Source of the DNA: Rozella allomycis CSF55
Lineage: Eukaryota
Length of the DNA stretch: 64,000 nucleotides
Reading direction: 5' to 3'
Assembly (NCBI GenBank): GCA_000442015.1
Contig: KE561265.1
Location: 124,001 to 188,000, forward strand
Made by a program: the position numbers and the translations under genes. Below, in pieces: positions 4,067 through 63,529 of this stretch (its first letter is position 1; the number at the start of each line of letters is the position of its first letter). The notes beneath the pieces were generated by a model, which was given only the letters and a program-made list of their open reading frames with translations, had not been told where the DNA came from and did no database searches.

Positions 4067-6006
4067 ATGAATATAGTTAGTATGAAATTTAAAGCCAAGT
4101 GAGTCAGATCATTATAATCAACATTCAAAAAATATTACATGTGCAGATATGAATAATAACTTCATTGTAACTGGAAGTGAAGATAGACGAGTTTATCTTT
4201 GGACTTTTGATAAACCAGATCCATTACTGGTAACATTATGAAATCCTAATGAAAGACAATGCTTGGTCATGCTTATCCTATAAGTTCTGTAACCCTAGAC
4301 GAGATGGAAGAAATAGGAGTTGCCGGGTCAACAAATGGTACAATTAAACTTTGGGATTTGCAGCAAAACAAAAGTATTATTTTTAGTGATCCATTTTAGT
4401 TATTCGGACTTTTACAGGCCACAAAAATCAAGTGACATCTTTGAGATTTCATCCACATTGCGAATTTTTTGCCTCTGGAAGTGAAAACTGTTTAAAAGTG
4501 TGGGATATTAAGAGGAAAGTTTGCATACAAAACTACGCCCTAGACAATGCCTCCTCGGTGAATGATATTGAATTTTCTCCTGACGGTCGATGGGTAGCAG
4601 CATCAGCTGGTGATAAAGTTCATGTAATCGTGATTAAGATAATTTACAAAGTTGTGGGATTTGACAGCTCAAAAGCTGTTATATACATTTTGTAAGCCCA
4701 AATTCAAAGTTCGATCATTTTGTTTTCATCCAAATGACATTCTTTTAAGTATGTGCGATGAAACTGGTTGTCAAACATTCTGGGATTTGGAAATGTTTCA
4801 ATGCATCTCAGAGTATCAAGTTCCTTTTGAAAATCCAAAATCTCTTTTCGCTGATCAAGGGCAAGCCATGATAGTGCTTTCGGAAACAGCTTTGGCGTCT
4901 ATTGGCTGGGAACCCCAAGGAGTATATGATGCAGAGAAGATTAATATACCTGGCAACTTTCTTACTCGCCAGATTAACGATACATTGTACACCGTCGGTT
5001 ACAGTGAAGCCAACTTGCTTCTATATTCCATAGATTTAAAAGTAACTACGCATAATAATTTTAAAAGAAATTAAGACCTTTTAATGGCATCGAAGAATTC
5101 CAAAACGAAAAGATTAATGTAAAGACAACAATTTCTAAACCACCATCACCTGTTTCTCCATCAAGATGCAACTGGTCTAGTCAATCACCAGTATTAATGA
5201 ATAATAAAATGGAATCTAATAGCCTAAATGCTAGCCTAAGCAACCTAAAGATAGAAAAGGTTCCAGCAGACATTCGATTGATCCCTAATAGTAGGGACAA
5301 AGCGATTGGACTCGATCCAAAGTCTTTTATTCAGGTAATTTATTTTTTCTTGCATTGAAAGCATGTGAAAGTAAATTCTCCAATTGAGTTGAATGACACG
5401 CTTCCCACTTCTGAATTGACTCAATTGCGTTTGACCATCGATGGAAACATTCCTTTTGTGAATTTAATGCAAGAAAGACTTTATAATATAAAAGAAGCTA
5501 AAATGATAAATTCAGAAATAGGATTAAAAGATTGTTTATTGTTTTTAAAAGAACTGAATGATTTAGCTGTAATCGCTGATGTATTGAAGACAATAAATGG
5601 TAAACCAGGAATCTGGAATCTAGACTGTTGCCGCATAGCATTAAGCTTAGTAAATAGACTACTGACAGGCATTTTTGAAGCGTAAGCAAAGTAAAATTAA
5701 ACTAAAAGGTATTATGAAGTAGCTTTTGATTGTGCTTCTTTTCTCATCACCCAGTTTTCGCCTATTGTAAAGACAACTCTTCAGAATCAACCTAATGGAA
5801 AAATTGTTGACATTCAAAGAGAAGAACGGTAATAAATAGCTTAATATCAGAACAGAATCAATAAATGCATGGAATGTCATGATTTCTTCAAGTCGATTTA
5901 TGATCAAACTAGAGTGACTATCAAGTATAAAGGCCCAATCACAAAGAAAGCTGCAGAATTAGAGGCAATTTTTGATCAAAACGGTCTACCAATGTTTATA
6001 TCATAA
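4067..6006 (+). CDS. KATNB1: Katanin p80 WD40 subunit
   Basis: WD40 repeats (TGSEDRRVYLW, GTIKLWDL, FTGHKNQVTSLRFHP, IEFSPDGRWVASAG) and C-terminal con80-like domain (DLAVIADVL, WNLDCCRIAL); 26-28 nt introns. Confidence 0.88.
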
Positions 6007-6032
6007 AATAAATTTATTAGCAGCAAAATTGA

Positions 6033-6995
6033 TTATTGATTATTTTCTAGAAGGAGAAATGTACCATATTTCTTGAAAAGAGAACAAGGNTACCATATTT
6101 CTTGAAAACAGAACAAGGGTCAGAAATATTTCCTTCAATTTGACGCTCAATGTCATGCCTTGTCTTCATAATGAGGAATTGATCTCGGAAATATGATATA
6201 TTTTCAAAGTTATTCCTTAAAATATCGTGTTCAAATGATGATAGTAAATGTGCAATATCCTTAATCTGTGATCGTTCTAACCAAGAAAGACAGTCAGGGA
6301 CTCTAAATTCTCGATCTCTCATTAGCGTTCCCGTTTGATAGATATTAGGATTATCTTCTTTAATTGAATTTGATGAACAGTCTCTATCGTTTTCTATTAT
6401 CATTTCACAGGCCTTGACTAGTTCGTTGAGTTTTTCTGCATTTAAACTTTTAGATTTTTCTTCATGGCATTGAGGAAGATCAGTGGTTGATATCACGTTA
6501 ACGAGGGGTGAAGATTTTGCTGATTTTAATCTGTGTGTGCGTTTTTTGGCTTTAGGCGATTCCATGGTGGTTTTGACGGGAGCCTCATTTTTTTCAGCAA
6601 CCGCCTTGTCCAATCTAAATGGTGATATTTCAAGCAATTTTTCTTCAGATGCTCCTTCTTTTTCCAGCTCAGATTTTCGTAACATGAATGCCATTTGTTG
6701 TCGTTCGGTTAAGCGTGACAAATCAAAATCACTGGACGCCATAGTTGACAATGTCCACCATTGCGAATCATTCTTTTTGCTTTTTTTAGTTCCTTTATAA
6801 GTCTAACAGGTCATTTTTACTTTTTTTGTTGAGTGCACGGCAAATACTCTTTGTATCTTCAAAATCAAAAATGCTCGAAGATAACTTGACAGGTGACGAT
6901 GTTAAGCAAGGTGTTCTTGGAATATTTATATCATCCAATGTTCTTTCTTTGAGTGCTCTCTTTGGGGATGACGAATAGGAAGGGGAACGCAACAT
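6033..6995 (-). CDS. Hypothetical Ser/Thr-Pro-rich, probably nuclear protein, 2 exons; 3' end disturbed by an N-joined duplication
   Basis: ORFs 6795-6995 and 6047-6751 join in frame via a 28-nt intron GTAAAAATGA...TATAAAG. Collapsing the 30-bp duplication at 6062-6119 gives ...FKKYGTFLLLENNQ*. Confidence 0.7.
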
Positions 6996-7027
6996 GTTTA
7001 TTTACGCGCCAATTTTGCGCGCCAAAA
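6994..7027 (-). promoter_or_regulatory. Tandem E2F-like sites plus a forkhead-like site abutting the ATG
   Basis: Minus strand reads TTTTGGCGCGCAAAATTGGCGCGTAAATAAAC-ATG; matches E2F TTTSSCGC and forkhead RYAAAYA consensus; GC-rich island in AT-rich DNA. Confidence 0.55.
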
Positions 7028-7089
7028 GTATTTGTAGCACTATTTTCGAAATTTCTCACAATACCAATGATTTTTAGAAAAATATCGTG

Positions 7090-7794
7090 ATGTGGGTATT
7101 TGGATACGGTAAGAGTTGTAGTGTTCTATTACAGGATCGCTGATATGGAAAGCTAATTTTAAGTTTGTTAAAAGGTATCAAATTTCATTACAATTGTTTC
7201 AAGGAGACCTGGGTATGTTAAAGGTTATGTTAGGCGATTTTGGCAGGTAGTTTTTTAAGTTTTTTAGCATCAGGGTAGTACTGATCACAGAGGTGTGCCT
7301 GGAGACAGTGGTAGAGTAGTTACTTTAATCCCATTTGAAGAATGGAAAACAATCAATGATGATGTATTATATTTTTTTTCCTTTAATAACATAGACAGTA
7401 AGTGATGGTGTTACTTTCGGTATGGCTTATCAAATTGCATTGGACGATGTCGATGAAATCCGCGCATATTTAGATTACCGAGAGAAAGGCGGATATGTTT
7501 GTGAAAAGGTTCAATGCCATTTATTAGATGGAGAAAAAGAAGTGGTGGACTGTATTTTGTACATTGCAACATCCGCTAATGAAGAATACTTAGGATTTGC
7601 CCCTTGTCATGACATAGCAAAGCAAATTCTTAAATGCAGAGGTATTAAATTAATAGTTTAATAAAGAAGGACCTAGTGGGACTAATGAGGAATATTTCGA
7701 AGAATTACACGATGTTCTATTAAAGCTATTTCCTGAAAATAAAGATGAGCATCTATTGCTGATTAAAAAGCATCTGAATTTATTAAAACAGTAA
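7090..7794 (+). CDS. CHAC: ChaC-family glutathione-specific gamma-glutamylcyclotransferase
   Basis: Spliced [54 protein letters not shown]. Confidence 0.92.
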
Positions 7795-7819
7795 ATAAAT
7801 AAATAAAATGGTATTTATT

Positions 7820-19420: not shown

Positions 19421-22341
19421 TTACTTTAGCTTTGTAATGCTGCGGATTATTCCAGATGAACTTATTTTCACATTGTTTCTGATGTCCTTAGCCATTGCGC
19501 CATGATCGTAATCAGATTTCAAAGTAATAAATTCGTATAAGAATTTGGACCTCATTTTCAAAAATTCCATGACACCAGGAGGAATACTTTTGTTGTGATA
19601 GGAGCAATTCAAAAATTCGCATGCAGACATGAATGCGATAAACAATGTACTCAGGACTATTAAACATGCTGATATATTAACAATGATTTGGGAACCCTGA
19701 GCATTAGGACCTTGAATGTGTACAATCACTAGACCCAGTAGAATATAGCAAAGACTGTAAAGCGACACAGTAGAGGCGTACGAAGGGAAGTGATAAACAT
19801 AAGGATTTGCATAATGGCATAAGTTTGCAAAAAGATATAATAGAACAACACATGATAACCCAAGGATGATTGGGTCTGACTTCAGTAGGACGGGGAAAAA
19901 TGTTAGCAATAATTTAAAAAGCATTTCTATTGTTGGCCACATCCATGCGTTATGTCTATATTTCGCAGCAATGTTTTGATATCGTGCAACTACTCTGGGA
20001 TTGTCAGCGTGATACTTGAAAGTAAAACAAATGAAAGTAACAAGAATTGGAATTCCAATGACGTAACAAGCTATAGAGGCTATAACTATTGGCAGTTGAG
20101 CATAGTATTCATTAGTGTTACATGTAATTCTCGGGGATGAAAACAAATAGCTACGATCAACTTTTCTTTCAAACAACATTAATATTTACCATCTGCAGAA
20201 CATACGAAATATGATATTGTGGTTTGAGATATAACGATATAGAAAATTGAGCATACTCTAAGAATGGACGATATTGTTTTATCAACCATTTTTTGCACTT
20301 TCAAGTCAGCCTTAGGAAAATAAATTTTAAAGGTAATCAATATTATAGTAAGGACCAAAATAAGAATTAAGGGATACAAGAAAAGACCATGTCTACTAGC
20401 AAATGTGCTCCCCAAAGCAAGGGAACATGGAAATAGGAAATCATAAGTACTAACACTTGAAGTCACAGTTTCTAATACAGTTGACGCTATCAAGTTGCTT
20501 TGAAAGGGATAAGTCGAAAATAGACCAAGTATTTGAATATGACTAAGAAGAATACCAAGACCTTTTCATTGATTCATGAATTAATTACTCTTGTTAGATT
20601 CAACAGAATAATTTAGATATAAAACAAACAAAATTATGGCTACTAATGCAATGAGGTATTCAACAACTTTTGGAAGGAAGCATTTTTGACATTTTTTCCC
20701 AATCAAAGCAAAACCAGTATATGTGTCACATGCATGACATCTTGATCCTTTGTATCCATCGGAACACGTGTTATCCTCTAAACAATCCGACTTTGTGAAA
20801 CATTGATAGAATAAAAGTGGAACATTTTCAGATTCTTTGTAGCCAAAAAGCGGGGTTGGCTTTTCACCTCCTCCTTTGCAAAATGCACCTTGAGGACATA
20901 AAGCACACGCTTCCTTTTCACGAAAAGTTCCCTGGGGACATTCTTTTAGATATGTAAAAGTTGCATAATCTATCCCAATAAATTCATTCGACGCCGAAGC
21001 TATTTTAACAGCAACTGTTTTGCTTGGGTGAGGTGGTACCACTACTTGTATAAGATTATTGTCCATGTAGAGTATATTATTCGTCTTTATGTCATCAAAT
21101 ACTACAAAAATTTCAATTTCAGAAAGAAAATTGTTTCCAGTGATGTTCACGGTGTATCCTCCAATCTGAGATCCGGAATTTGGAGTTATTGAATAAAGAT
21201 TCACTTCTTTACATGAAAACGTAGCAACTGATTTCCAATTCGGTCTTGGACACCAAAATATATTCCCTTGCAAGAACAACTTGTTGTCAGACAACAAGGC
21301 AAAGTTGTTGGGTATATGTCCTATCAATCTATTGTTTTCTAAATTAATCATCCTTAAACTCGCAAGATTATTTAATGCATCTGGAATTATACCTGTCAAA
21401 TTATTATTGGAAAGGTTAATTGTCGCTAAATATGTGTTTCTACCAAACGCTGAAGGGATACTCCCAGTTAAACTAGCATTCTGGGCCAAATATATTGATA
21501 AATATCTTCCTACAACGGATTCATCAGTCATCGCATTATTTATTTTGTTAAAGGAGATATCTAAATACTCAATGTATCTGGGGAGTGGTGGCATGCTACT
21601 ACATGTAAGATTGTTACCTGCAAGAGCCAATTTAGTAACACGAAATGTACTACATTCCACTCCATACCAATTTGCGTTTGTTAAACTAACAGTCATTCCT
21701 AAACATGGATCTAACGAGTTGTTCTTCCACTGCGTGTTTTGAATCCAACTATGGCCATTACACATATCATAAATATTGTTTAGATAGTATTTGTCATCTT
21801 TTAGACATATTGCGCCCTCATACCCCTCTTGACAAATGCATCGATTGTCGACACATCCCAAACCTCTATTCATACAATTTAAATAGCATGTATTTGAAGG
21901 CTTTATTCCATCGACATAATAAAGAATTAAGAATCCATCTCTTTCATAACTTCCATCTGCGATAAATGAAATAATCCATGGTTCATTGGTATTGTTCCCA
22001 ACAAAATAGCTAACTGATCTCGTAACATGCAACACATGATTTAGAATTTGAGTATCTCCTTTGTAAATGTCGACAGAATCCAATTGATCGACTTCAAAAT
22101 CTAGTATTTCAAAGGTTATATTGCTATAACTAGTGCTGGGTTGAATGAACCATAAACAGTTTTGATTTGGTATGTAGCCTCTTGATTGTGTAGAAATCGA
22201 GTTTGAAATAAATCCAAATGAATCTGTTAAATTGTATATTCCCTTGCATTGCGGATTTGGGTTGGTTGCAGCGGTTTGATGTTTTATGATTGAAAAACAC
22301 AAGAACTGTAAAAACAAAAGCATAAATGGTAAACATTTCAT
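19421..22341 (-). CDS. Orphan multi-pass receptor-like protein (~954 aa): SP-CUB-EGF-LRR-IPT/TIG-Cys-rich-~7TM
   Basis: CUB (YIPNQNCLWFI, FIADGSYERDGF), EGF (CVDNRCICQEGYEGAIC), LRRs (LSNNNLTGIIP), IPT (SITPNSGSQIGGYTVNITGNNF), CPQG repeats, TM region; two introns (27, 29 nt) join three ORFs in frame. Confidence 0.8.
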
Positions 22342-27607: not shown

Positions 27608-29093
<1,486 letters not shown>

Positions 29094-36190: not shown

Positions 36191-38233
36191 ATGTTTGTAA
36201 ATTGTATATTGAAGAGACCAAACATTGCTAGTTTCTACAAGGCGCAATGGTACCCAATTTTCCATAGAATGCGATTCATGTCGAGTCAATCTGGGTTGAA
36301 CTATAGTGTGGATAAGATTAGAAACGTAGCCATTATAGCGCATGTTGATCATGGGAAAACAACGCTTGTTGATTGTTTGTTGCAGCAAAGTGGATGTTTA
36401 GAAAAATCGAGTCAGAGTAGAGTTATGGACTCGAACCAGTTGGAAAAGGAGAGGGGCATTACAATTCTGTCGAAATGCACATCTATTCATAGGGGAGATT
36501 ATCATATTAATATTGTGGATACGCCTGGACATGCAGACTTTGGTGGTGAAGTTGAAAGAGTGTTATCGTTGGTTGATGGTGTCATTCTTGTTGTTGATGC
36601 GACTGATGGTAAATATGTTTTTGCTTCGTTATAGGTCCAATGACGCAGACGAGGTTTGTGTTGCATAAAGCATTGTTGCAAGGATTGCTACCGATTGTTG
36701 TTCAAAACAAGGTTGATAGAGAGACAGCTAGATGTTCTGAAGTTGATGATTTAATTCTTGATTTGTTTATGAAGCTGAATGCAAATGATGATCAATTGAT
36801 GTATCCAACGTTGTATGCATCGGCAAAGGAGGGATGGGCAGTCAAGGACATTAAGAAGGATGAAAGAAAAGATATGAATCCATTGTATGATACGATAATA
36901 GAGCATATTAAACCACCGATTGTTGATTTGAATGATAAATTTTCGTTTCTGGTGAATAATTTGGAGCATGACACGCATTTGGGGAGACTTCAGACTGGAA
37001 GGATTCAATCTGGGAGTGTTAAAGTCGGAGATGTTGTGAAAGCATTGAAAGAAAATGGAGAGTCAATTTGTCAATCTAAAATATCTAAAATATTTCTTAA
37101 AAGAGGATTGGAAAAGATTTCAATTCCAGCTGCATTTGCTGGCGACATTGTGACGTTGGCGGGGATTCCATTAGCTTCAATAAATAACACAATTTGTAAC
37201 GTTGAGGTTAATCAACCATTGAAAGCAATTCCAATTGACCCTCCAACGCTTTCAATAAAGTTTGTTGTTAATGATTCACCATTGAAGAATAAAGAAGGAA
37301 GAGCGATTCCATTTGATGTTTTAAAAGAAAGATTGATGAAAGAAGCAGAAGTTAACGTTGCTATTAACGTGTAAGATGAATTTAAAGAGATTTTAAAGTG
37401 GAGAAATTGTTGAAGGGAATTCAATTGAAATTCAAGGCAGAGGAGAATTGCAAATGGGAATTTTGATTGAAACGATGAGAAGAGAAGGAATGGAATTCGC
37501 TGTTTGTCCTCCTTCAGTTATGTTGAAAAAAGATGAAAAGAATCCAGGAAAGTTTTTAGAGCCAATTGAAGAAGCAATTTTTATTGTTCCAGCAGAGTAC
37601 ATGGGTTCTTTACTAGATAAGATTTCTAAACGATCAGCAGAAATTATTGAAATGAATGAACTGGACGATAAAATGCAAATTATATCTCACATGCCAACAA
37701 GAGCACTCGTAATCAACTATTCTATTTCTTTCTAGATTGGATTTCTCAGTGAATTTAAAAATGACACAAAAGGAAACGGATCTGTTGAAAGATCTTTTCT
37801 AGAATATCAAAGTTACAAGGGTACCAATCCATCAAATTGTTAACTAGGAACAATCATGTCCAGTAGAGATGGTGTCTGTGTTTCCACTTCTAGCGGTGTT
37901 GTTACAGACTATGGCATGAAAGACATTGAAGAAAGAGGAAGAACTTTTGTTCATCCTGGCGTTCAAATTTATCCAGGAGTCATTCTCTCAGACAACAATG
38001 AAACACACGACATTCTCTACAATCCTTGCAAAGAAGTTCATTTTCAATCAAAGAGCTTCTCCTACGTCTTCAAAGGAACTCCATTACCCCTTGAACAGTT
38101 TCTTGCTTTAATGAAAAATGATGAAATGCTTGAAATCACTCCAAAGTCTCTTCGTTTAAGAAAAAAGACTCTCGATGCAAATGCTAGAAAAATAGAACAG
38201 AAAAGACAAGAACAATTAAATCGCAGTCTTTAA
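36191..38233 (+). CDS. typA: TypA/BipA-like translational GTPase, probably mitochondrial
   Basis: [69 protein letters not shown]; basic N-terminal extension; four short introns. Confidence 0.92.
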
Positions 38234-41762: not shown

Positions 41763-42441
41763 ATGCAGGACAATGACCCAACAGCGGAATTTTTGGCTAA
41801 AGAACAAGAGTTGTTAAAGTCAGTGGGTGAATCTTTCAATGAATTCACGTCGCCAATATATTCGCCGGATATAAGTATGAACCCACATGAAAGCCTAGCC
41901 AATGATGTTCAATACGTATTAAATCAAAATGTCTTTAGTTAAGTTAGGCTCTGCAATTGACAAAATGAATGTTACTCAAAATGAATCTGCGAACCCACCA
42001 GGTGACTTTTCAAATAACAGTCTAAATACTTTAGAATCGCAAAAAATTAAGTATAAATTAGATATTATCTTTATTTAGTGAATGGAAAGTTAAATTCGAC
42101 TCAATTGTTGCCGAGCGCGATCAAAAGAGTAAGGAAAGACACGAACTAATTTTAAAACAAGCAGAAGAAGACCTGAAAAAATTTTACGCTGAACATAATG
42201 ATAAGAAAATAAGAAAACACGAGTTTAATTTAAGGGAAGAAGAGGAATTTATTAAAATTCGTGACGAAGATCCGGTCGGGCACAGATGGGATGTTGTCCA
42301 TCAAATGGTACATTTTTGGTAATTTAAGAAATATAGGTGGAAAGTGTCACAAAACCTAAAGGTTCAAAAGATACTTCTCGAATGAAAGGGCTGTTCAGTG
42401 AGTTGAAGGGAAATCCCCAAGCACCAGGCAATCAGATATAA
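41763..42441 (+). CDS. CLC1: Clathrin light chain
   Basis: DPTAEFLAKEQELL, EWKVKF..IVAERDQKSKE, RWDVV, KDTSRMKGL...KGNPQAPG; three 28-29 nt introns. Confidence 0.85.
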
Positions 42442-42679
42442 AAATTTACAATGATTAATTGAATATTTGTATTGACTATTTTATACATTTTTTCATGTTT
42501 TATAATTTATTCGACAATCAATAACTATTGAATTTGAGACTAATATAAAAGCAAAACTTTTACGCAGGCAGTACTCCAGGCTCTGCTTTTAACTGCCTTT
42601 GAATTTTGATTAAAATTGTTATAAGGATTATCCCGAGAGGATTTGTAAACAAGTTTCAGACCCCTGTTAGTTTGTATTA

Positions 42680-43280
42680 ATGGTGACCGTAACAGAACTT
42701 TGTCCAGCGTATGCTCCATTCTTAGGTTGTCTCGGTGCTGCTATTTCAGTGGTTTTTTGCAGTAAATCATGACGATGATAGTAATAGGTTTTGGTGCTGC
42801 CTATGGCACCGCCAAATCAGGTGTTGGAATAAGCGCTATGGGCGTCATGAGGCCTGAACTTATTTTAAAATCTGCGGTTCCTGTCGTTATGGCAGGTATT
42901 ATAGGTATTTATGGGCTTGTTGTGTCTGCACTGATTGCAAACTCAAGTAACATTTTCTTAATAGTAATATCAGTGAGCCAGGATGGTTATAGTCTTTTTG
43001 CGTAAGTGATATAATAAATTTTAAGAGTGGGTGCATTCATCTTGGTGCTGGCCTTAGTGTTGGACTCTCTGGTCTTGCAGCCGGTTTTGCAGTAGGAGTA
43101 AAATTCTGATATCACTTAAATAAGATTGTTGGTGATGCTGGTGTAAGAGGAAGTGCCCAACAGCCAAGACTTTTTGTTGGAATGATATTAATATTGATTT
43201 TCGCTGAAGTTTTAGGGCTATACGGTCTTATTGTAGCTTTAATTCTGAACACAAGAGCTGGGGAGTCATCTTGCTCTTAA
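42680..43280 (+). CDS. VMA3: V-ATPase proteolipid subunit c
   Basis: [74 protein letters not shown]; four 26-27 nt introns. Confidence 0.96.
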
Positions 43281-43325
43281 TAAATATGATACAAGTATTC
43301 GTTATCGGTGATTTTAATTTATTTA

Positions 43326-44028
43326 TTATAGACTTTTTAAAATTAGTTTGTACGTACTAAGTATTCCAGCCCCCAATCCGCACGAAACTTGGCCTATCAT
43401 AAACCTTTCGATATGAAATACATCATATAGGCAAAATCCAAAATCAAAAAGAAGTTTGGTAAATGAAATCAATTGCATTTTTAACTTCGCTATTTCCTTT
43501 CCCTTAACACTTTCATCTTCTGAATTTTGGAGGTCTTGATATGATCTAGAAAGGGACTTCATATTTTCAAATAAATCAATATGAATACATAAGAACCATG
43601 CAAGTGCAGAGAAACGCTCTGCCTTTCTAAGAATGATCTTGTCCTTGATCAATGACATTTTCCCCAAACATACAATATCGTCAGAAATATCATTCAGAAT
43701 AGACACCAGAGCATTAACTAGTTGAATACGGTCTTCAGTATTTTTATAGCCAGTGTCCTTTTGAAGAATTTGCTTGAATTCTTTTAGTGGTTCTACAAAG
43801 TGCACTAGCCTCAATATCTTTCTGGTTTGTGATAAATTGGAAACAAGAATTTTAAGCTTTGATTCTTGCTTCACATGAAATAGTATACGCAATTTAGCCA
43901 AATACTGCACTATTTTCATTATTTTGTCTCTTCCTTCTGTTTGAGCAAAAAGTTTAGAAATTAATTTTAAACTAACTGAAAGAAATTAATGATGTAAACA
44001 TACTATAATTTGTATTATGTGAATCCAT
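43326..44028 (-). CDS. PEX11: PEX11-family peroxisomal membrane protein
   Basis: QTEGRDKIMKIVQY, LSQTRKILRL, C-terminal CGLGAGILSTYK. Confidence 0.85.
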
Positions 44029-44119
44029 CCAATGTTAAATATCCGAATTTTTTTTTAAATATACAAACTGTTTTTATTGATTAATTAAGCATTGTACTTG
44101 TTTCTTCTTGAGACGGAAG

Positions 44120-44370
44120 ATTTCATGAACCTTCGTGGAAAACGAATTTTTTACTATATTCATGAAGCTTTCAAAAGAAATTTGTGGAGAACCAGGTCAT
44201 AGCCTTGATCAATTCTGAAAATTTAATTAATAAATAAAAAATGTTGATATATTTTTTAAAAAAAGTTAAATTTTCTGAGCAGATCAAGACAATGACCTGA
44301 TTCTCTGACAAATTTCTTGAAGGCTTTATGAATATAGTACAAATTCGTTTTCCACGAAGGTTCATGAAAT
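44120..44370. repeat. Imperfect inverted repeat (~108-bp arms, AT-rich spacer)
   Basis: ATTTCATGAACCTTCGTGGAAAACGAATTT... at 44120 is the reverse complement of ...AAATTCGTTTTCCACGAAGGTTCATGAAAT ending at 44370; similarity continues inward with mismatches. Confidence 0.92.
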
Positions 44371-44568
44371 AGAATTAGGAATTTCTGGGAAAAATGTTAT
44401 CCAAATTCTTTTTGAAAAAGATTCGCAATCGAAAAACCTATGGAACACTGTTTCTTCTTTAACTTGACATTTTGAAGACATTGCAGAAACATCACTAAAC
44501 CTTGTGAATCTTTTATTAGTTAAATATACTCCATGATAAATTTTCCATAATAACTGAGTAATATACAC
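44362..44568 (-). mobile_element. Degenerate non-LTR (L1/Tx1-like) retrotransposon fragment, zf-RVT domain
   Basis: LLWKIYHGVYLTNKRF...SSKCQVKEETVFHRFFDCESFSKRIW matches the zf-RVT pattern W..H..L.T..R..CxxC..ET..H.FF.C...IW (first Cys lost); no RT core seen. Confidence 0.68.
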
Positions 44569-44746
44569 TAATAAAGATCACCTGCCACCTGGCAACTTAT
44601 CTTCATTGCAGCCGAGAATTTTGATCGATCAATCATTAATCAGTTAAGGAAGCTTAAATTTCATGTGACAGAAACATTTATTTATATTTATAAGATATAG
44701 CTTTACAACTAAAATATTTTTGAAAGTTAACCACTAATTATCAGGA

Positions 44747-46774
44747 TTAAATGAGAATGAAGTGTCCCAGTACCCTGGGGGCGTTGAAGTCGTGAGTTTG
44801 AGATTGTGGTTTTTCTTTCTTTTTCTCTGAAATTGGCCTTCTATATGAATATTTTCAAGAAACTAGAGTCTATTGAGAAGAAAGCTATTACTTTGTCGCA
44901 ACAATGACAACTCTTTTTATGGGGTATGGGCTCGGACTCAAGTTCTGGTATATCGTCAACAGGAATCGCATTAAGTATGGGTGATGATGATTTTTCTGAA
45001 ATAATAGCCGGTGAATGGCTTTTAATATCGTTTATAAAATCAGGGGCATCATGAATTTCACTTTCGCTTATTTCAAAGGATTTCGGGTTTTTCGAGTGTA
45101 AAAATAACAGCCGAATATAAATTTCTCGAAGTTTATCGTTTGGCGAAGCATTTTCATGATTTAGCTTTAATAACTCATAGATCGAATCTACAAGTAGCTT
45201 GCTGTTTGTCATGATAGTTTTCGAAATTTACAACTTACAATCCTGTAAAAAGTCAAATTTTATTTCTGCTTGCCTGACTTTTTTTCTTGTATTAACATTT
45301 CAGAAAATTCCCTGATCTTAGATGCCATGACGTGGTTTAATCTATCGTTTTGCTTTATTTTGTTCGAAAGCTGTTCTACATTTGCAGTTAACTCTACGTT
45401 TGTAGTTACAACGCTCTTGGTTAATTCCATGACCTCTTTTGACAAACTATCCAAATCATTTGGCATCGAGAAATTGATTGTGTCGCCTTTTTTGAAAGAG
45501 TCTTCTTTTCTACACTGGGACAAAATGGACTTCAACTGCTTCAACTGTTGTTCCAGCGACCTCTTGGATGATTTTTCTTTATCTAAGGCTTTTTTCAAAG
45601 CATCCTCGTACTTAGCTTTCTCTTTAATCACAGAATTCTCAATTTCCTTTTCATATTTTTTCACTGTTTCATATTTGAATTGTTCAATTTCTTGATTTAA
45701 AAGGTCAAGCTGGGCCTGATGATGGTTTTTTGTGGACTCGATTTCATCTTTCAAGGATCTTATTGTATTGTCCCGGTTCTAAATTGTTTATCGAAATTAG
45801 GATACCTCTATTTCATTTTTAATATTACCGTTGTTAATTTGGATCGCCTCTTCATATTCTTTGACTTTTCTTCTCAAATCGTCAAGTTCTGCATATAGCA
45901 AAAGTAATTCATCTTCGTCAGGTAACTTTATTCCTATATTTTTGTTAAACAAAGTGGCAATAAATCCTAAATTCAATCGACTATGACCAGACACTATATC
46001 TGCTGGAGTTACGAAGTATCTACAGTTCAATTTCTCAGCCTCTTTAAGCACTATTTCTGCTCTTTTTATGTGATCTGATTCTTTGAGAACCTGGAAGATG
46101 TTTTCTCTGTTTACTATTTTCGGGGCAATCTGCGATAATAAGATTCCATATGCCTCGCCATCAGATAAATCTTTGCTAAAATTTACAATGGATTTATTGG
46201 ATCCTGCCTTTTTCAAATGATAGTTAAACCATCGAAGCAATATCTGTTCCGATTTCAAGGACAAAAGGGTTTGAAGAGTTTCACCTTTTTGGATTAATCT
46301 TATTAATTCAGGATGAGATACCAGATTAACTTCAGCCAGAAGATTTGCTCGTATTATTTGCCATAAGAGCCCCAGAACAAGATCGCTATTCATGTCTAAC
46401 AAATCATTTGCCCCCAAATTTACAACAATCAGCTTTGCTTTTTTTGCTGCTTCAACTACAACATTTAAATTTTCTGTAACTTCAAATATGACTTTTGTTT
46501 TTGGCTGATTCAATTGCTCTAAATTGACTTTGTATGAAAGTCTTTCAAAAGCCACAGTATGAGGAAAGATATATTCTAATACATGAGCTAAAACTATTCC
46601 ATCTCTCAATTTTGTTAATAGAGTTTCTGGTTTTAATGGTAAATACGACCCTATTTTTGCAAACTCAGGAGAACCTTGTAGAATAGAATTCAAATGGTCA
46701 CAGTATGCAGAACATTCGTTGATAAACTCCTGGTCCTTCTCATACACATTTAATCCGGCTAAATTTGAAGACAT
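44747..46774 (-). CDS. Fimbrin/plastin-like single actin-binding domain (CH1-CH2) fused to a long coiled coil
   Basis: KLRDGIVL, TENLNVVVEAAK, LVLGLLWQIIR, LKSEQILLRWFNYHLKKAG, NFSKDLSDGEAY, RLNLGFIATLFN; then heptad-rich region. 3' end less certain. Confidence 0.8.
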
Positions 46775-46792
46775 TTTGAACGTAAACAAACA

Positions 46793-48976
46793 ATGACCAA
46801 TTTAGATAACTACAAAGTGACAGACTTAAGGCAGATTCCAGTACATAAAATTACTTCAACTATATATACATTAATCAGCGATAACAAGTATAATGATGTT
46901 ATCGATTTGTTGGCACCGGAGTCTACTACCTATTCAAATTCTCGCGCACTTTATTCTTTGCTTGCTTTTTGTTATTATCAAACAGAAGACTTTAATTCTG
47001 CTGCAGGTTGGTAATCTAAATCTATTTGATTTATAGTTATGAAACACTTATAAACTATTATCCCGACTACGAAGAATACAAATTGTACTTCGCCCAATGT
47101 CTGTACAAAATTGGTAAAATAGGATAATTTTGATGAAAGGCGACTATGAAGGCACTAGAAGAATAGTATCTTCGATTGTACAAGAGGACTTATTGACTGA
47201 TTCTCTAAAATTACTTGCTGCAGCACACTTCGAGGCCGATGACATATCTTCTTGCAAGAAAACAATGGAGAAATTACCAACTGGAGACATAGATTCATTA
47301 ATTAATAATGCATGCATTGCTCAAAAAGTATAATATTACATACAGCTAAACAAGGGTGGAGATTATGAAAATGCTATTAGGCAATATTTAGACATCATTA
47401 AAATATATGATAATGAGCATCATACAGACTTACTGTACAATCTAGCTCTATGCTATTACGAAATAAGGCAATATGACTTGGCATTAAAGTATATTACCGT
47501 CATCATTGAAATAACTGTCAAAAATCATCCCGAATATCTAATAGGCGTTCATATTGACACAAACAATCAAGAAGACTTAAGATATATCGAAAACAGTGAA
47601 TCGCTACATGAGAGTAGAATTATAGAAGCGTGCAATTTAAAGGCATCTATTGAATTCAAGTTAAAAAAATGTAAAGAGTTTAAAATTAAAAATAAATAGT
47701 CAAGGCCGCTAAAGATTCCCTTAATGACTTTCCTCCCAGGCTAGATATGGATATAGATCCGATCACTCTTCATAACCAAGCAATAATAAATTGCGACGAG
47801 AATCCCGAATCTTCGTTTGATAAATTACATTTCCTTTTATATCAAGATCCATCTCCGCTGACAACATTTGCAAATTTGCTTTTGCTTTACATAAAGTATC
47901 AATACGAAAATCTAGCTGCTGATGTACTTTCGGAAAATAGTCATTTGGAAAGTTTGATACCGCAAGTAGGATATTTCTTTGCTGATGAATAGCACATTCG
48001 TGAATATATAGACGCCAGGATACTTCAAGTGGTGTCTCCTCAAGATGCAGCAAAAAAGCTTGACACTTTGGTAAGTCAATCTTCGGAGATTCTTCGAAAA
48101 ATTTTACAGAAATTGCAAAATATGAGTCAGGATGCTCCAGCAGAAGAGCAAGCGAAGGTTTTGTACAGTTACGACGATCAACTAGCAAGGTTTGTTCCTT
48201 ATCTTATGGCTTTTGCTTATATCTCATGGCAAAATGGAAAATACCAGACAGTAGAAAAGATTTTCAAAACATCTGTGGAGTATTGCAACGGAATGGATTC
48301 GTGGAAAGCAAATGTGGGTCATACCTTGTACATGCAAGAAAAATATGCCGACGCTATTGGATTTTACGAGCCTATATTTATGGCCCACAAGGATAATGTA
48401 ATTTTATTTCTTATCAATGAAAGATTTTGGAAATAACACCCATAATTCTAGCTAACTTGTGCGTTTCTTACATAATGACGTCATTAAACGAAAGAGCCGA
48501 AGAAATCATGAAGATAATTGAAAAAGAGGAGGAAAAAATCACGTCACAATCTCCTGACAAGAGGATATATCACCTTTGTATTGTGAACTTAGTTATCGGT
48601 ACTCTATACTGCACAAAAGGGAATTTTGAATTTGGAATAACAAGAATAATAAAGGCCATGGAACCCTATAATAGAAAGGTAATGGAAAGTGTAATTCGAC
48701 ATGTAGCTGGGGACTGAGACTTGGATGTATGCAAAGCGTTGCATTATGTCCCTGTTGTTAACTCTATCAAAACAAATGATGATAATAAAAGAAAGCACTT
48801 GGCATGAAATAATAGATTTTTTGGAAGCCGCCGAATTATACGGTAAAAATATAGTTACTGTAGTCGACCCATTAATGCAAAACGAAACATGGGATGAAGA
48901 AAAGGAAGAGACTAGATTTATCAGCCAGGAAAGTAGAATAATTAAAAAAATGTACTTGGAAATTATGGCGGTATAA
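46793..48976 (+). CDS. TTC30: Intraflagellar transport TPR protein IFT70/TTC30/DYF-1
   Basis: TSTIYTLI, DPITLHNQAI, FANLLLLYIKY, ILANLCVSYIMTSLNERAEEIM, YHLCIVNLVIGTLYCTKGNFEFGI, TETWMYAKRC. Confidence 0.95.
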
Positions 48977-48982
48977 ATAAAT

Positions 48983-49445
48983 TTACTTTTTCATTACAAC
49001 ACACAAATAGTTGGTTGTTGCCAACAAATCTATAGGCTGCATGTGTCTTTTCATTGACATAAATGTAGGATTCATATCTATTATTACACAATCAAAGGGA
49101 AATTTGATGGAATGCACTTGATTCTCGTCAATCGTAATAGTTGCTAGAGTGTCATCCTTCTTCACTTTGAACCGTTTCAAGGAGTCGTTTTCAGTGTAAG
49201 AAAACTTTTCTTGAAATTCAGAGTTATAAGAGACAGTTTCCACTCTATTAAAATCTGCATAAATCAAGATACACCTTTTGTAACTTTGTTTTTTTGAGTT
49301 ACTCGTTCTTAACCTGCCAGCACTTTAATCTGTAGTGTGGAAAATCAAAATCTTCAGTAAAATAAGTTTGTTCTTTAATTTTTTCGTTCCATGATTCTAT
49401 TTGTTCAAGAGTCGGATTTTCTGAAGGAGTTTTTAACTCGAACAT
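48983..49445 (-). CDS. Possible Abitram/FAM206A (GcvH-like fold) protein
   Basis: TLATITIDENQVHSIKFPFDCVIIDMNP...NYLCVVMKK resembles the FAM206A C-terminus; one short intron. Confidence 0.5.
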
Positions 49446-49519
49446 AAAGGAGAAAATTTTGCAAATATTCCAATTAAATAAAAAAATAGATGTACCTAAT
49501 AAGACAAGTTATTTATTAA

Positions 49520-51659
49520 TTAAGGTTTTGTAGTAGTCAAGTGAAATATGAAGCTTGAAATCATTGCGGCTAAGAAGGCAATTACCAAAATGACTGGACC
49601 AACCCGGTCATCATAGGGACCTGGATGTCTAGTTCTTATTCTATGTGCTCTCCATTGATAAAGAAACAATGCGTAAAGAGCAAACAAGACAGCTACTGAA
49701 ATAAATAAATAGGCGGAGAATGTTGCTGTTGGATTATTGGGAAGCGACAAAAAGACAGAAGCTGTCCCACCCAAAAAGATGGAAAATTGAACCCAGGAAA
49801 GGAATGTTCTTTCATTTGCGAAAAACACTTTGGGTTCGACACGTACAGGAACGGCAATCTTCTTTCCATTCTTCTGATCGTTTACAGGCTTTCTCTTTGT
49901 GGTAAAGATAGAGAAAATTGACGAGGCTTGATGCTTCCTTGAAAGACCCAAGAGTGGTTTTTCTTCATCGGATTCGTCTTCAGCATCTTCCTTTGGCATT
50001 TCAATAGTGACATCCTTGTGATTTTTAGATAGTCGTTTAGTGACAGATATGTCTCTATTGATTGCTTCTTCAATTGGTCTTCTTTTTTCTTTCTCTATTT
50101 CCCGGGCGGTTTCATCAACCATTTGAGCCGGCTGCTTTCTAATGTCAACGTCCATTTGAGGAAGCCAAAATGGAAATAAAGTAACTTTGTGCTCAAGCAA
50201 TGTACTGCAACCATGAATAAATTTAGAAAACTTTGGGACCTCCTCGACCTTGAAGAAATTGGAAAATGAAATTTACTAAATGACCCTGGACTAAATCCTG
50301 AACCCATTTCGGTGGTTCTTGACCCATTTGAGTTTGTAGTTTAACTTCCAGTATTGCATATGGAAACCTAACTATTTCATCAGATGGAAGATTATTGAAT
50401 GGATATTCACAAAGCACATCCGGCCTTCTCCAATTTCCTTGGTTTCTTGGAGGGTCCTCACGTATCATTGAAAGTTCAGTATCAAGTGAAATTCTTACCC
50501 TTGCGTCTCCCGGCAGTTGAAATGCAGTACGATTGTAGAATGTTCTTACAGCTGGCTTTAACTTTTTCTCAAGAACGACGTTTTGAATCTCTCTTGATAG
50601 AGTCATCATTGCTTCCAACTCTTCGTCACTTTTAGATTTTTTGTCTCTCATTTTTTCAACACTTTTGTCTAATGTGTAAGCGCCGCTCAAAAAATCATTG
50701 ACATGTTTTTCTTTTAACACAAACCTCGACTTGACGCTTGTTTCACCCGTCCAATCTTCTCTATGAGTTTTTCTTTCTACAAACACTTCTTGTGGTTCAT
50801 CGCTTCCATACCAGCGTAATCTTAAAGCGATTGCACCTTCAGTCTTTTCCAAACGTCCAGTGTAAAGTTCCATGTCATCGTTATCATAATAAACGGATGA
50901 AATTGCTGGATCTGGAGTGGTTTTCTTCTTGTCAAACACAAGGATTGGTAGATGCTTCATAATATAGAATTTTAGTTCCGTCACATTGTCAGGATGAACC
51001 CAATACTTTGTTGTCTCATTTTACCTCTTACATTAAATTACCTTTCTTACAAAGTTTTGAGCAGATCCTGCAGCATCATTCGATACATCCTCTCTTTGCC
51101 CACCTATAAAATCAACAACAAAGAAGTACCATTCCTAATCACATCGTAGAGTTTAGATAATCTTAAGATCAGATTGTCTAAATTCTCTAAATACAAAGGC
51201 CTTGAATTTAATCTAACCATAAACATTGGTTTAAGCATGTAAGCTGTATATTTGTCATGTTTTTTCAATATCTTTATAAAACCAGTGTAGTTCAGTCTTG
51301 TAAAGTTTGCCAATTCCATCAATTCTAACGTTATCCTCTCAATTTCTTTCTGAAGCTCATTAATGACATCATTATCACCTAAATGTGCGTGTACACGTTT
51401 CTCCACGTCTTGAACATGCCTTGTCAATTCTCCTCCTTTGACATCACGAAAGTCAAAGACCTAATGTCAAACTATACAAAGAATTTACTTTTTCCAACTC
51501 TTTCTCCAGTGCCTGAACAAAGGCAGCTTCGTCACCATCACTAAAATATGCACTCTTAGCAGTTCTTTCTTTCAAAATCGACTTTAGATAGTCATAGTCC
51601 ATATAATGAAAACGCCATTCGGGATATCTTTTGCTTTTAATCTGCTCTCCAAACTTCAT
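49520..51659 (-). CDS. VTC4: Vacuolar polyphosphate polymerase VTC4 (SPX-VTC-DUF202)
   Basis: [69 protein letters not shown]. Confidence 0.96.
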
Positions 51660-52099
51660 TATACGACCCCGGTTAATTAACCAGCCAATTAAAACCGAAA
51701 TTGTTATAGATCAATAAAGCCTTCTTAATTATCTTTAAGTACAATTTCTCATTCGACTCTTTGTATACTTCTGCTGATGACTTAGTATCTATATTCTTTG
51801 GCTATTCGTCTAAACTTTGAATATTGTTTTATTCCCTTTATTGCACCGAGACTCACAAGTAAAAACACATTTAACCCTGCTTCTACATTTTGGATTCTCA
51901 ATATAATGATTGTGAATTCTAAGCCCAGAACAAAAATGTGAACTATTGATTTGAAAGTTTTTTAAACCAGAAAGTTTGAAACCATCTTTATTACAATGTT
52001 TTAAGATTAATTACAATAATCATATCTCATTATATACAGATGATCTAAAATTTTTCATTAGTATATTTAATTCACCAATTACTGAGCCACGTCTTTATA

Positions 52100-53920: not shown

Positions 53921-55451
53921 ATGCCAAAACCAAAAATTCTTTTTATTTTAATCGATGGATTGGGTGATGTTGGAATAAAGTCTAAAGATTTTCAAACACC
54001 ACTTCAATTGGCTTCCACATCTCACTTGGACCTTTTGTCAAGTACATCATTTATTGATTTGTAATAGAATATGGGCTAAATGGAATGATAGATCCTGTCG
54101 ATGTAGGTTTGGCCTGCGGATCAGATACAGCCCATTTAAGTCTTTTCGGCTATGATTCAAGACAAGTCTACAGAGGCAGAGGTGCATTTGAGGCTATGGG
54201 GGCTGGGCTAGATTTACAACCCGGAGACATAGCATTCAAAGTATTTCATCTTAATAGAATTTAAAAGAGCAATTTTGCTATTATTGATGATTCGTCCAAT
54301 ATAGTGATTAGCAGGAGAGCCGATAGAAATTTTGAACATTCTGGTCCCGTTTTCTGCAAAGATATTGATAACAAGTACATAATATATTTGTAATAACAAC
54401 TGAATAATTGATTTGAACGGAGAAAAGATACAGATTAATTGCAAATACGCAACTGAACACCGATGCGGTATTCGGATAAGAGGGGAGTTTGCATTGTCTG
54501 ATCAAATCACTGGAACTGATCCATTAAAAGACAAGTAAATTATAAAGATTCGTGTTATAGTCGATTACTGTTGAAGTCTGAACCATTGAGCCATGATGAC
54601 GAGGTTGCAGTCAGAACCAGTCAGGTAGTCGAATCTTTTTGATTTAATAGATCGTTAATAAAGTTTCTGATGAATTAAGAGAATTATTAAAACAACACCC
54701 AGAAAACGAACGAAGAAATCTAAAAGGGATGACGCAAACGAATGTGGTACTCTTGCGAGGTGCAGGTGGTTTACTGGAGGTAATAATAAAATTCTTCTTC
54801 AATCTATCAGATTCCATCCTTTATTTCAAAAACTTCACTAAAGGGTTTCATGATTGCGCCAACTTGCATTATAGCCGGGCTAGGGAAATGCATTGGTCTA
54901 GGTATTACACATCTTCTTTTCTTCTTTAGATGTTATTAATGTGCAAGGTGCAACTGGTGACTATAAAACAAATCTAATTGCCAAGGCAAACGCTGCAATT
55001 CAAATCATTTCTGGTAAGTAACGAAAATAATGGTGATAAGAAAGTTACGATTTTGGTTTCCTACATATTAAAAGTGTCGATGACGCTGGGCATGATAGAA
55101 ACATAGATTTAAAAATTTCATGGATTGAAAAGGTCGACCAAATGATTTCAAGAATAATTGATCAGGCCAAGGCAGTAGAATGTCTTGAGAATGTAATTAG
55201 TGAAATTTTAAGGTTATTAGCTTTGGATTATAGTTACTGGAGATCATTCTACACCTGTTGAATATGGTGATCATAGTTGCGAGCCTGTGCCATTTGTTCT
55301 CTGCAAATTGCGAAATATTTTAAAGGATGACAAAACATTGGCTGATGATGTTCAGCGTTTTAATGAAATATGTTCATCTAAAGGGGCATTAGGCAGATTT
55401 TCCGGTTTTGAAATTATGAATAGCATACTTCCCATCATTATGAATGAATAA
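53921..55451 (+). CDS. apgM: Cofactor-independent phosphoglycerate mutase, archaeal-type (ApgM / alkaline phosphatase superfamily); ~10 introns
   Basis: ILIDGLGD, ACGSDTAHLSLFGYD, YRGRGAFEAMGAG, TEHRCG, FLHIKSVDDAGHD, VTGDHSTPV. Confidence 0.9.
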
Positions 55452-59003: not shown

Positions 59004-59350
59004 ATGTCCAGAGAAAGAAATAGCACCGATTTTGAACTTCACAATGATTTCCACCCTTCCCAATTTATCCAAAGTCCTCGCCCTATTCCTAAAAAAGCCA
59101 TAGCATATGCCTCAATATTATTCCTACTCGGTTCCTTTTTTCTAGCATTCGGAATACTTTTGTTAACTAATATCATACCCGAAACAGTATAAATTGACTA
59201 AATTATTAATAGAATGTGAATGATAGATCTATTCCAATGATCATTCTAGGTAGCCTAATGTTCATTCCTGGTTTTTATCACGTCAGGATAGCCTACTACG
59301 CATACATGAAAGTACCAGGATACGATTATTCACAAATTCCAGAGTTTTAA
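59004..59350 (+). CDS. TMEM230: TMEM230 (DUF872) membrane protein
   Basis: IPKKAIAYASILFLLGS, LMFIPGFYHVRIAYYAY..VPGYDYSQIPEF. Confidence 0.88.
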
Positions 59351-59379
59351 ATAAATAAAAAGGTTACAATTTATATGCT

Positions 59380-61052: not shown

Positions 61053-61344
61053 GGCTGTTTTAGTGGCGCAGTGTTCACTTGGCGGATTTTTTATTTTTGT
61101 GGCTGAGTGAAGGTGAAGGGTTTAAAATAGGAAACAATTGCTTATTTCTTAAATCAACGCCACTCATCATAATTTAAAATTAAAACCCTTATAAGCGACA
61201 GCGTGTTAATTAATTTATAACATCAGTTTTCAAGGGGTTAACTATGCTGCATGGATGACAATCATTGAATTACCTCACTTTGTATATTTATAGCATAATT
61301 CTAAATATAGCATTTATTTTAAATGAATGATTCTATAGTTTAAT

Positions 61345-62345
61345 TTAAACCTTGCTTTCCCCTTTGATATCAAAGGTCTGTTCCGGCGTTAAATAAAATA
61401 AAGCAAGGCCAGCCAAAACCAAGGAAAAGGATCCAAAATACCAATACTCCAGCTAATTTAAAAATAAATTTGAAGATACTTTTTGGTTAAACAAGATCAT
61501 GTAGCCTATGAGGGTGTAAATGTATGTTGTCAACAAAGACAAGTTTAAAGCGGTCGCTGATGTATGTAGTATTACAAAAGGAACTAAAGAGTAAAAAACG
61601 AATATAGCTAAAGCATAAAAAGCAAGAAAAGTAGCATTTGAAGAATCCATTTGCGTTATTTTATGATACTCCAAAGCAAAACTACTCGACGTGAAATGAA
61701 AAACTTACCTCTGCGAGATTCCAAAAATTAATCCAAAAGCGCTAAGGAGCCCCAAATATTCGTACGAGCCCACATAATTTAAAAGGTACTCTTGAACTGT
61801 GTTGGCTAAGGCATACAAAAAGGCACCGCCAACAGCTAAAAGCATACCTTTCATATAAGAGGAACCTATTATATTAATAGATAATTTTTACTTTGTAAGT
61901 CATTTGCTGGTTGATTGGTTTGAACTATGAGGAAAATCAAACCTAACAAACAAAAGATTACGCCTATAAAATGTTGTTTTCGATATTTAGTCTTGAAAAA
62001 TATAACACTCATTATCATTGCAAATGGCACAGTCATGCTGTTGGCTAGAACGATGCTAGTCACGCTGGCATATTCAAATGATGTTACAATAAGAAAGTTT
62101 GCTTCCAAATCAATAATCGCATTCAGAATTATTAATGCCAATATTTTTCCCGTGACAACTTTTTTAATGTTTCTATAATTGAATGGAAAATACGCTAAGA
62201 AGATTAGAAAATAGCAAATTGTTGCTTGAAAGGCGGGTTTTACGAGTCCTGCATCAAAGTATTCATTCAATAGATTTGTAGTAGTCAAGCAAAGAGATAA
62301 AAGTTGGCCTAGCGCAAAAATCAACAGTCGAAGTGAACCAAACAT
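61345..62345 (-). CDS. SLC35F1/F2-like (DUF914) DMT transporter
   Basis: LGQLLSLCL, IDLEANFLIV, GAFLYALANTVQEY, SATALNLSLLT. Confidence 0.88.
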
Positions 62346-62369
62346 TTGCGTGGCTTGGACGGAAAAAAT

Positions 62370-63529
62370 ATGGCTAGTGATTCTCTGAGATTTTTAAAGG
62401 AAAATGTTGTTTTAGAAGCGGAAAGGGTGCACTCGGTAATAATATAGTGCAATATTGAAAAGACTTTTTCTATGGACGAACCAGGAGTCTTTCACAAAAG
62501 AGATGATATTTGCGATCTTCAAACTCTAAAAGAAGTAATAGAAATATGAACTCTGAATTAAGAAAGCTCAAATTAAAATAATATCCGAAGAAGAAAATCG
62601 TTTAGAGTTTGATCTCATCGGCGTTGATGCTTCATTTGCCAATGCTTTACGAAGAATAATAATAGACGAAGTAAAGAAAAATCGTTAGCTTAAAAAGATC
62701 CCCACAATGGCCATTGAGAAAGTTTTCTTTGCGGATAACACTGGCTTAATGCACGAAGAGATGTTGGCTCATAGATTGGGCTTGGTTCCTATCAAGGCGG
62801 ACCCCTCGTTGTTTTCTGAAAGAGGACGTAATTATATATTTTTGATATGTTTTAGCTAATGAAGATGCAACTGATTATAATACCTTGGTATTCACCTTGA
62901 ATGTTAAGTGCGAAAGGGATCCTAATGATACGTCAAAATTAATAAATGAACATGGTAAGATAAAAAATATAAAAGTGAAAGTTTTGTCTGGACATTTGGT
63001 TTGGTCACCTCAAGGTGGACAAGAAGAGAGATTCAAAGACTGTGCACCTGAACCTGCAATAAAAGATATTGTCATAACCAAATTGGCCGAAAATCAAGAA
63101 ATAGAATTACAAGCCTTTTGTGAAAAAGGCATAGGTCAAATTCATGCAAAATGGTCACCCGTTTGCACTGCAAGTTACCGTCTTATGCCCAATATAATCA
63201 TGAAGGAAGATGTTTTAGGAGAAGAAGCAGTCAAATTTTCCAATTGCTTCTCACCTGGTGTTATAGAAGTAGTAGTTGTAAACGGTGTGAAAAAAGCTGT
63301 GGTTGCGAATCCTAGAAATGACTCAATGAGTAGAGAATGTCTTCGTCATAAAGAATTTGAAGACAAAGTAGTTCTTGCGAGAAAGAGAGATCATTTCATA
63401 TGTAAAATTTTATTCCACTTATGATTAGTCTTGGTTGAAAGCGATGGACGATTGTCCGCTAGACGAATTGTTGAAGATGCATTTAAAGTCTTGACTGCAA
63501 AATGTGAAAACGTGAAAAAATATCTTTAA
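62370..63529 (+). CDS. POLR1C: RNA polymerase I/III subunit RPAC1 (RPC40/AC40)
   Basis: FDLIGVDASFANALRRIIIDEIPTMAIE, LAHRLGLVPI, KGIGQIHAKWSPVCTASYRLMP, DSMSRECLRH. Confidence 0.95.

Follow-up and report, generated by a model that had tools for sequence, protein, structure and literature searches.

How can a spliceosome find the 3' end of an intron that is less than 30 nt long and carries almost no sequence signal? This question is raised by a 64-kb stretch of Rozella allomycis CSF55 nuclear DNA (the window, meaning the whole stretch that was analysed), in which introns were inferred from reading frames and homology. R. allomycis, which parasitizes the water mould Allomyces, is a cryptomycotan and sister to the microsporidia. 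The initial annotation of the window proposed that the terminal AG of its introns is chosen by distance from the donor, implying a modified spliceosome. Our analysis confirms, at the level of inferred introns, that the underlying observation is real: the introns are minimal, 26-32 nt long, and have as their only signals GTA, an A at base 23 counted from the first base of the intron (A23), and the next AG. The idea of a ruler is kept; most likely, however, it is to be moved to the step from the donor to a putative branch adenosine.

The window has a G+C content of 30-36% and is gene-dense, with 29 well-scoring gene models on both strands and 96 inferred GT-AG introns of 26-32 nt. The models come from a Viterbi gene finder that uses codon log-odds (trained on open reading frames (ORFs) of at least 250 codons), allows only GT..AG introns and carries split codons across introns. 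The GT and AG ends follow from the construction of the finder, which allowed nothing else, and the informative part of the donor is the frequency of GTA. When a flat cost is applied over 15-70 nt, 118 introns are called, of which 67 measure 26-29 nt (4 of the 56 allowed lengths), and many of the odd-length calls of this run have a frame-compatible alternative of 26-29 nt, as judged by eye. The second run, with equal cost for 24-32 nt and counts restricted to genes scoring at least 30, yields the 96 introns in 29 models. Their lengths are 26 nt (19 introns), 27 nt (32), 28 nt (21), 29 nt (12), 30 nt (5), 31 nt (3) and 32 nt (4), with the mode at 27 nt; introns of 24 or 25 nt are absent (0/96), although both lengths were allowed at equal cost. 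The donor is GTA in 87 of the 96 introns and GTAA in 64, whereas bases 5-6 are unconstrained and the information content falls after base 4. The initial annotation had given lengths of about 25-30 nt and a donor that is nearly always GTA, and both descriptions hold for this larger set.

Several side observations concern the same calls. The only introns longer than 32 nt that the finder called, of 82 and 106 nt, were excluded from the 96 because they look like modelling problems. They lie in 43112-43360, where a PEX11 model overlaps the 3' end of VMA3 in antisense, and in 53921-55451 (near 54375-54480), where a phosphoglycerate-mutase-like gene has many introns; both calls may conceal a micro-exon or a genuine stop codon. 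Around the donors, the exon base at -2 is A in 64/96 introns, and intron phases 0, 1 and 2 are represented by 54, 22 and 20 introns, respectively, with phase 0 over-represented. In the coding sequence of the 29 models, sense-strand GTA occurs 386 times compared with 464.5 +/- 12 in synonymous-codon shuffles, and sense-strand GTAA 104 times compared with 142 +/- 9, with 180 occurrences of GTAA on the antisense strand. This depletion may reflect selection against decoy donors, in shuffles that leave codon-boundary dinucleotide bias uncontrolled.

A positional signal within the introns is the A at base 23. When the introns are aligned at the donor, this base is A in 73 of the 96 (binomial P of 2.7e-16 against an interior background of 35% A), and the same position downstream of exonic GTA sites, examined as a control, is A in 128 of 342. 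In each of the four main length classes A is most frequent at base 23, with 18/19 introns of 26 nt, 26/32 of 27 nt, 12/21 of 28 nt and 10/12 of 29 nt; the A is kept at +23 across these classes and lies further from the AG in the longer introns. The best A position anchored at the 3' end reaches only 57/96, and the bootstrap difference between the two is zero or below in 0.2% of resamples (n = 96). An A is present somewhere at bases 22-24 in 88/96 introns. The finder did not use the A23 signal, yet the signal marks its intron set. A branch sequence motif around A23 was not found in the 96 introns, in which TRA occupies bases 21-23 in 23 cases and YTRAY bases 20-24 in 6. The earlier statement that the introns lack a fixed branch motif is therefore right for the sequence but not for the position, with an A at +23 in 73/96.

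In addition, introns of 26 nt have a lesser peak of A at base 16 (13/19), and the composition before the AG is A/T-rich, with A in 57/96 introns at -4 and 51/96 at -5. G is depleted just after A23, with 4/96 at base 24 and 4/96 at base 25 against a background of 12%. Hardly any AG ends at bases 23-25 (one at each), as if AGs that are too close were avoided.

The choice of the AG follows a simple pattern. The acceptor is the first AG to end at or beyond base 25/26 in 95/96 introns and in all 52 frame-forced introns, the latter being those in which every alternative GT-AG pair of 20-40 nt would close at least one flanking exon; this result is partly built in by the length prior of the finder. 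The sole exception among the 96 is one of the two mis-called GAG introns described below. Approximately 70 internal AGs that end no later than base 24 are passed over, including those preceded by a pyrimidine (YAG), and at 306 exonic GTA sites used as a control the first such AG falls within 26-32 in just 33%. Skipping of nearer YAGs, which had been pointed out before, is seen in the katanin intron 5829-5855, where a TAG that ends at base 11 and a CAG that ends at base 22 are passed over, and in intron 1 of VMA3, where the same holds for a TAG that ends at base 20. The two introns with a GAG acceptor obey the same rule, ending A23-G24-A25-G26 in VMA3 and A23-T24-G25-A26-G27 in VTC4. As for the claim that the AG is chosen by its distance from the donor, the choice does look positional, with AGs at base 24 or earlier skipped, but the end of the AG varies from 26 to 32 and the fixed element is the A at +23.

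The base at -3 of the acceptor is T in 49, A in 35, C in 9 and G in 3 of the 96 introns, and A in 24, T in 22, C in 6 and G in none of the 52 frame-forced ones; some frame-compatible alternative exists for the other 44/96. The interior composition of the introns is.43 T,.35 A,.10 C and.12 G. The -3 base tracks this composition except for a shortage of G: a pyrimidine is not preferred, and G is avoided. AAG acceptors are thus as common as the initial annotation had stated (35/96, and 24/52 of the frame-forced introns), and the count of -3 bases that it had suggested as a check, run here on the inferred introns, reveals no preference for YAG. GAG is rare, with about two credible cases in about 100 introns, and two of the three GAG acceptors called by the finder were wrong.

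The better supported of the two credible GAG acceptors lies in the following gene:

49520..51659, minus strand: VTC4 polyphosphate polymerase gene, with four introns of 28, 26, 27 and 28 nt
51015..51041, minus strand: GAG intron of VTC4, 27 nt, GTAATT...A23-T24-G25-A26-G27

Splicing of all four VTC4 introns gives exactly the annotated Rozella protein P0121 (676 aa). The exon upstream of 51015-51041 ends with QNFVRK, and the exon downstream aligns to yeast Vtc4 from its first residue (E = 1e-101). The motif T.KYW is present in 119 of the 120 listed proteins, and xxF.R.T.KYWVH, which spans the junction, is uninterrupted in 119/119. The only frame-compatible alternatives to this intron are 36 nt long and would remove VRK or TTK, which are conserved in the 119 motif-bearing relatives. 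A GAG acceptor in VTC4, which had been said to be required by conserved protein, is strongly supported by this alignment and by the agreement of the model with the annotated protein.

The second case is in VMA3, whose exons align to the yeast and mammalian c subunits:

42680..43283, plus strand: VMA3, V-ATPase proteolipid c subunit, with four introns
42762..42787, plus strand: intron 1, 26 nt, GTAAAT...AATAG; a TAG that ends at base 20 is passed over, and the annotated P0254 also uses the 26-nt form
42947..42973, plus strand: intron 2, 27 nt, CAG acceptor
43002..43027, plus strand: intron 3, 26 nt, GTAAGT...A23-G24-A25-G26; GAG is used and an AAG ending at base 24 is skipped
43098..43124, plus strand: intron 4, 27 nt, AAG acceptor, which is the sole AG of the intron

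In alignments with c subunits, exon 2 corresponds to yeast residues 27-77 and exon 4 to residues 87-109. The possible splice forms were scored against a profile of 80 relatives, with the following results:

Four-intron model (26, 27, 26-GAG and 27 nt): 268.6 bits
GC..AAG intron at 43000-43025 in place of the GAG intron: 268.8 bits
20-nt form of intron 1: 260.4 bits
Intron 2 retained: 256.1 bits
Public annotation: 251.5 bits, 17 below the GAG-acceptor model
GT..AAG form of intron 3: 126.5 bits, with the frame broken

The profile scores support the GAG acceptor as the best reading of intron 3, which would then have a canonical GTAAGT donor and an A at +23, although the GC..AAG form scores equally. 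GAG had earlier been called a requirement of the conserved protein at this site; the frames of exons 3 and 4 and the score of 268.6 bits agree with its use, but it is not strictly required in view of the 268.8 bits of the GC..AAG form.

In the public VMA3 model (P0254, 172 aa), portions of two of these introns are kept as coding sequence, and an intron of 29 nt, GTAATATC...TATAG, is removed instead, with no GAG acceptor. The model has an aberrant 27-residue loop where relatives have 18-23 residues, and it is probably mis-spliced, judging from its lower profile score. Intron 2 of VMA3 is a multiple of three in length and has no in-frame stop, and its retention would add nine residues with the frame intact; the finder cannot detect stop-free introns with a length that is a multiple of three.

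Other introns were checked individually:

5829..5855, plus strand: katanin p80, 27 nt; TAG (base 11) and CAG (base 22) skipped, ACAG at 27 used; frame-forced, with con80 in the flanking exons
5682..5708, plus strand: katanin p80, 27 nt, AAG acceptor; in the con80 profile, the upstream exon runs to position 77 plus 3 residues and the downstream exon starts from 82
28346..28373, minus strand: RuvB-like (TIP49), 28 nt, AAG acceptor; frame-forced, with exons abutting at TIP49 profile positions 201/205
20161..20189, minus strand: 29 nt; AG ending at base 24 skipped, AG at 29 used; frame-forced
36609..36634, plus strand: BipA/TypA-like GTPase, 26 nt, GTAAAT...TATAG, A at +23; resulting protein motif judged by eye
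37821..37847, plus strand: second intron of the same BipA/TypA-like gene, 27 nt, GTACC...CTAG, A at +23; a frame-compatible alternative, chosen by eye

The last two replace wrong GAG calls of the finder, at 36628-36653 and 37839-37868, respectively.

The common form of the introns, GTA(A) followed by about 19 unconstrained A/T-rich bases, the A at 23, 1-7 further bases and AG, suggests with somewhat better than even confidence that these are ordinary spliceosomal introns that have been reduced to the minimum and retain almost no signal. The A at +23 would be the branch adenosine, and it would be selected for the most part by lying at a set distance from the 5' splice site, because no branch-site sequence motif accompanies it. 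The exons would be ligated at the first AG at least 3 nt downstream of A23, with any base at -3. As a result of such a mechanism, AGs ending at base 24 or earlier would be ignored, YAGs included, AAG would be as frequent as composition predicts, and GAG would be used when a G happens to be at -3. For budding yeast, the textbook rule is that the AG coming first after the branch is used; yeasts mark the branch by a strong TACTAAC-type motif, whereas Rozella conserves only the position of the A. A distance from branch to AG of about 3-10 nt is reported for several hemiascomycetes (PMC2483917). The modified spliceosome that the initial annotation deduced would not be required, because look-alike animal introns coexist with canonical U2 small nuclear RNA (snRNA) and U2AF1/2, as stated in the main text of PMC13644364. 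A more specific form of the proposal can be entertained only tentatively: the branch site may be set by a physical ruler of about 22 nt from the 5' splice site, via the geometry of a single intron-spanning complex and without pairing to a branch sequence, and the next AG at least 3 nt away may be taken with the -3 base unread, which would make Rozella the third independent arrival at this arrangement. If so, convergence of the fungal lineage with myxozoans and dicyemids would be a sign that the lower limit is universal and that the spliceosome has a default mode.

A number of points weigh against a branch adenosine chosen by spacing. The first-AG test has low power, since by composition about 4 skipped AGs are expected from base 26 to L-2 (L being the intron length) and 0-1 are seen. 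In the frame-forced subset, anchoring at the 5' and 3' ends gives 41 and 33 introns, respectively, which is borderline (5.7% of bootstrap resamples at zero or below). The proportion with A23 is down to 12/21 in the 28-nt class, and A23 is absent in 23/96 introns, 8 of which have no A at bases 22-24. With TRA at 21-23 in only 23/96, pairing with U2 would be weak, and a distance of just 3 nt from branch A to junction would be an extreme value among those reported. Additionally, the intron set is the product of our own finder, which is limited to GT-AG introns, in a single 64-kb window. In a rather unlikely alternative, only a steric minimum is at work: introns would have been trimmed to the shortest tolerated length (26 nt), A23 would be a by-product or belong to an A/T-rich signal of the 3' end, and the branch would lie further upstream or be flexible. 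The A/T-rich bases before the AG (A in 57/96 at -4 and 51/96 at -5), the second A peak at base 16 of the 26-nt class (13/19) and the failure of the frame-forced subset to separate 5' from 3' anchoring cleanly are all consistent with this alternative. However, no position anchored at the 3' end does as well as base 23 in the full set, base 23 has the highest count in each of the four main length classes, and the depletion of G at bases 24 and 25 (4/96 each) fits a protected site.

Direct measurement from the donor to the AG by modified machinery, with no separate branch signal, would account for the narrow lengths with their sharp floor at 26 nt, for the skipping of nearer AGs and for the lack of a branch sequence motif. 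It is nevertheless improbable, because the position of the AG varies over 26-32 while the A at +23 is constant in every main length class, and because similar myxozoan introns are found with canonical U2 snRNA and U2AF1/2 according to the main text of PMC13644364. It is very improbable that the AAG and GAG acceptors are artefacts of the gene models, produced by wrong frames, sequence errors or the rules of the finder, with YAG at the real junctions. Such an origin might be suspected from the two of three GAG acceptors that the finder mis-called, from the GAG-free public model of VMA3 and from the 44/96 introns with a frame-compatible alternative. Against it, AAG ends 24 of the 52 frame-forced introns, the VTC4 model equals the public annotation with its motif uninterrupted in 119/119 motif-bearing relatives, the Pfam profile positions run on across the AAG junctions of katanin and TIP49, and A23 marks the set even though the finder ignored it.

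Shrunken spliceosomal introns with a spaced branch adenosine, the reading preferred here, have close counterparts in animals. Rozella is a fungal-lineage case of the architecture published in 2026 for myxozoans and Dicyema. According to the main text of that study (Hadjez et al., Mol Biol Evol 2026, PMC13644364), the median intron is 22-27 nt in myxobolid myxozoans and Dicyema japonicum, with GTa as the 5' signal, and the 3' signal is a bare AG in D. japonicum and non-myxobolid myxozoans. Weakly conserved A's there lie further from the AG in longer introns, that is, they are anchored at the 5' end, and the authors propose them as the branch point; canonical U2 snRNA and U2AF1/2 are reported for those animals. 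The Rozella introns are like the Dicyema/myxobolid type in being short and narrow in length, in having GTA and AG as signals and in having A's that lie further from the AG with length. They differ in that Rozella belongs to the fungal lineage and not to the animals, which indicates an independent origin, in the floor at 26 nt and in the single A position at +23.

Tiny introns are also known from ciliates, among them Paramecium (about 25 nt), Nyctotherus and Stentor (15-16 nt). The GTA donor, the length below 30 nt and the lack of a branch sequence motif are shared with Rozella (PMC2633312, PMC9505925). However, the data of PMC2633312 for Nyctotherus contain just two experimentally derived introns (the logo has 48) with an ending other than TAG, compared with TAG in 49/96 and AAG in 35/96 of the Rozella introns, which do not have a strongly conserved TAG acceptor of the ciliate type. 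Furthermore, the Stentor branch A is at base 10/15 or 11/16 and fixed to the 3' end in the account of PMC9505925, whereas the Rozella A is fixed to the 5' end.

The comparison with the microsporidia shows a different contrast. The introns of Encephalitozoon cuniculi measure 22-76 nt, are of the GT-AG type and are very short, like those of Rozella (PMC3629993), but microsporidia have few introns with strict motifs (PMC3629993, PMC2483917), whereas Rozella has many that are almost motif-free. Rozella is intron-rich, with 2.5 introns per kb of coding sequence (PMC8476143), and the strict extended 5' splice-site and CTAAY-type branch motifs of the microsporidian kind are not present in its introns in the window. 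Whelan et al. described two Rozella S23 introns of about 30 nt without microsporidian motifs (PMC6349667), and 29 bp is given as the minimum median intron in a fungal set (PMC8042348). In the parts of the literature covered by the search, which did not extend to the 2013 genome paper or to supplements, the remark in PMC6349667, the density in PMC8476143 and the minimum in PMC8042348 are all that was found on the intron architecture of Rozella.

The window adds a parasite of the fungal lineage to the few eukaryotes with introns shorter than 30 nt, and in this sister group of the microsporidia the introns are of the opposite kind, numerous and nearly motif-free. The proposed rule (GTA, A at +23, next AG) is simple, and it can be tested because R. 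allomycis is culturable on its host fungus. In annotation, finders built around YAG or introns of at least 30 nt will produce wrong gene models, for example the public VMA3.

Rfam and tRNA scans of the 64-kb window found nothing, including no snRNA, and the window contains neither snRNA nor splicing-factor genes. A search for RNA data sets covering 42001-52000 gave none, and one metatranscriptome with the same species label gives six pieces of 18-38 nt without joints, which are uninformative either way. A metagenome scan with a 643-aa orphan ORF gave no match; in the scan with VTC4, which gave 80 loci, there is no close Rozella relative with tiny introns among them. A ciliate genetic code was considered and rejected, as ORFs are open for up to 668 codons under the standard code.

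According to Pfam, the exons of the window encode a myosin II head, Dna2, a PIKK kinase, NTE/patatin and VTC4, in addition to a UbiA-type transferase, katanin p80 con80, TIP49, dUTPase, PEX11 and clathrin light chain. Window genes match the VTC4 and V-ATPase c proteins of R. allomycis at 100% which, with the UbiA match that follows, identifies the DNA as that of this species. The intronless UbiA ORF (39451-40521, plus strand, 357 codons) matches an R. allomycis CSF55 protein over 84% of its length with 100% identity; this protein is annotated as UbiA/heme O synthase (P0001, 407 aa), and the public model thus differs from the ORF at one end. Three single N bases are present in the window, at 3345, 6090 and 41754.

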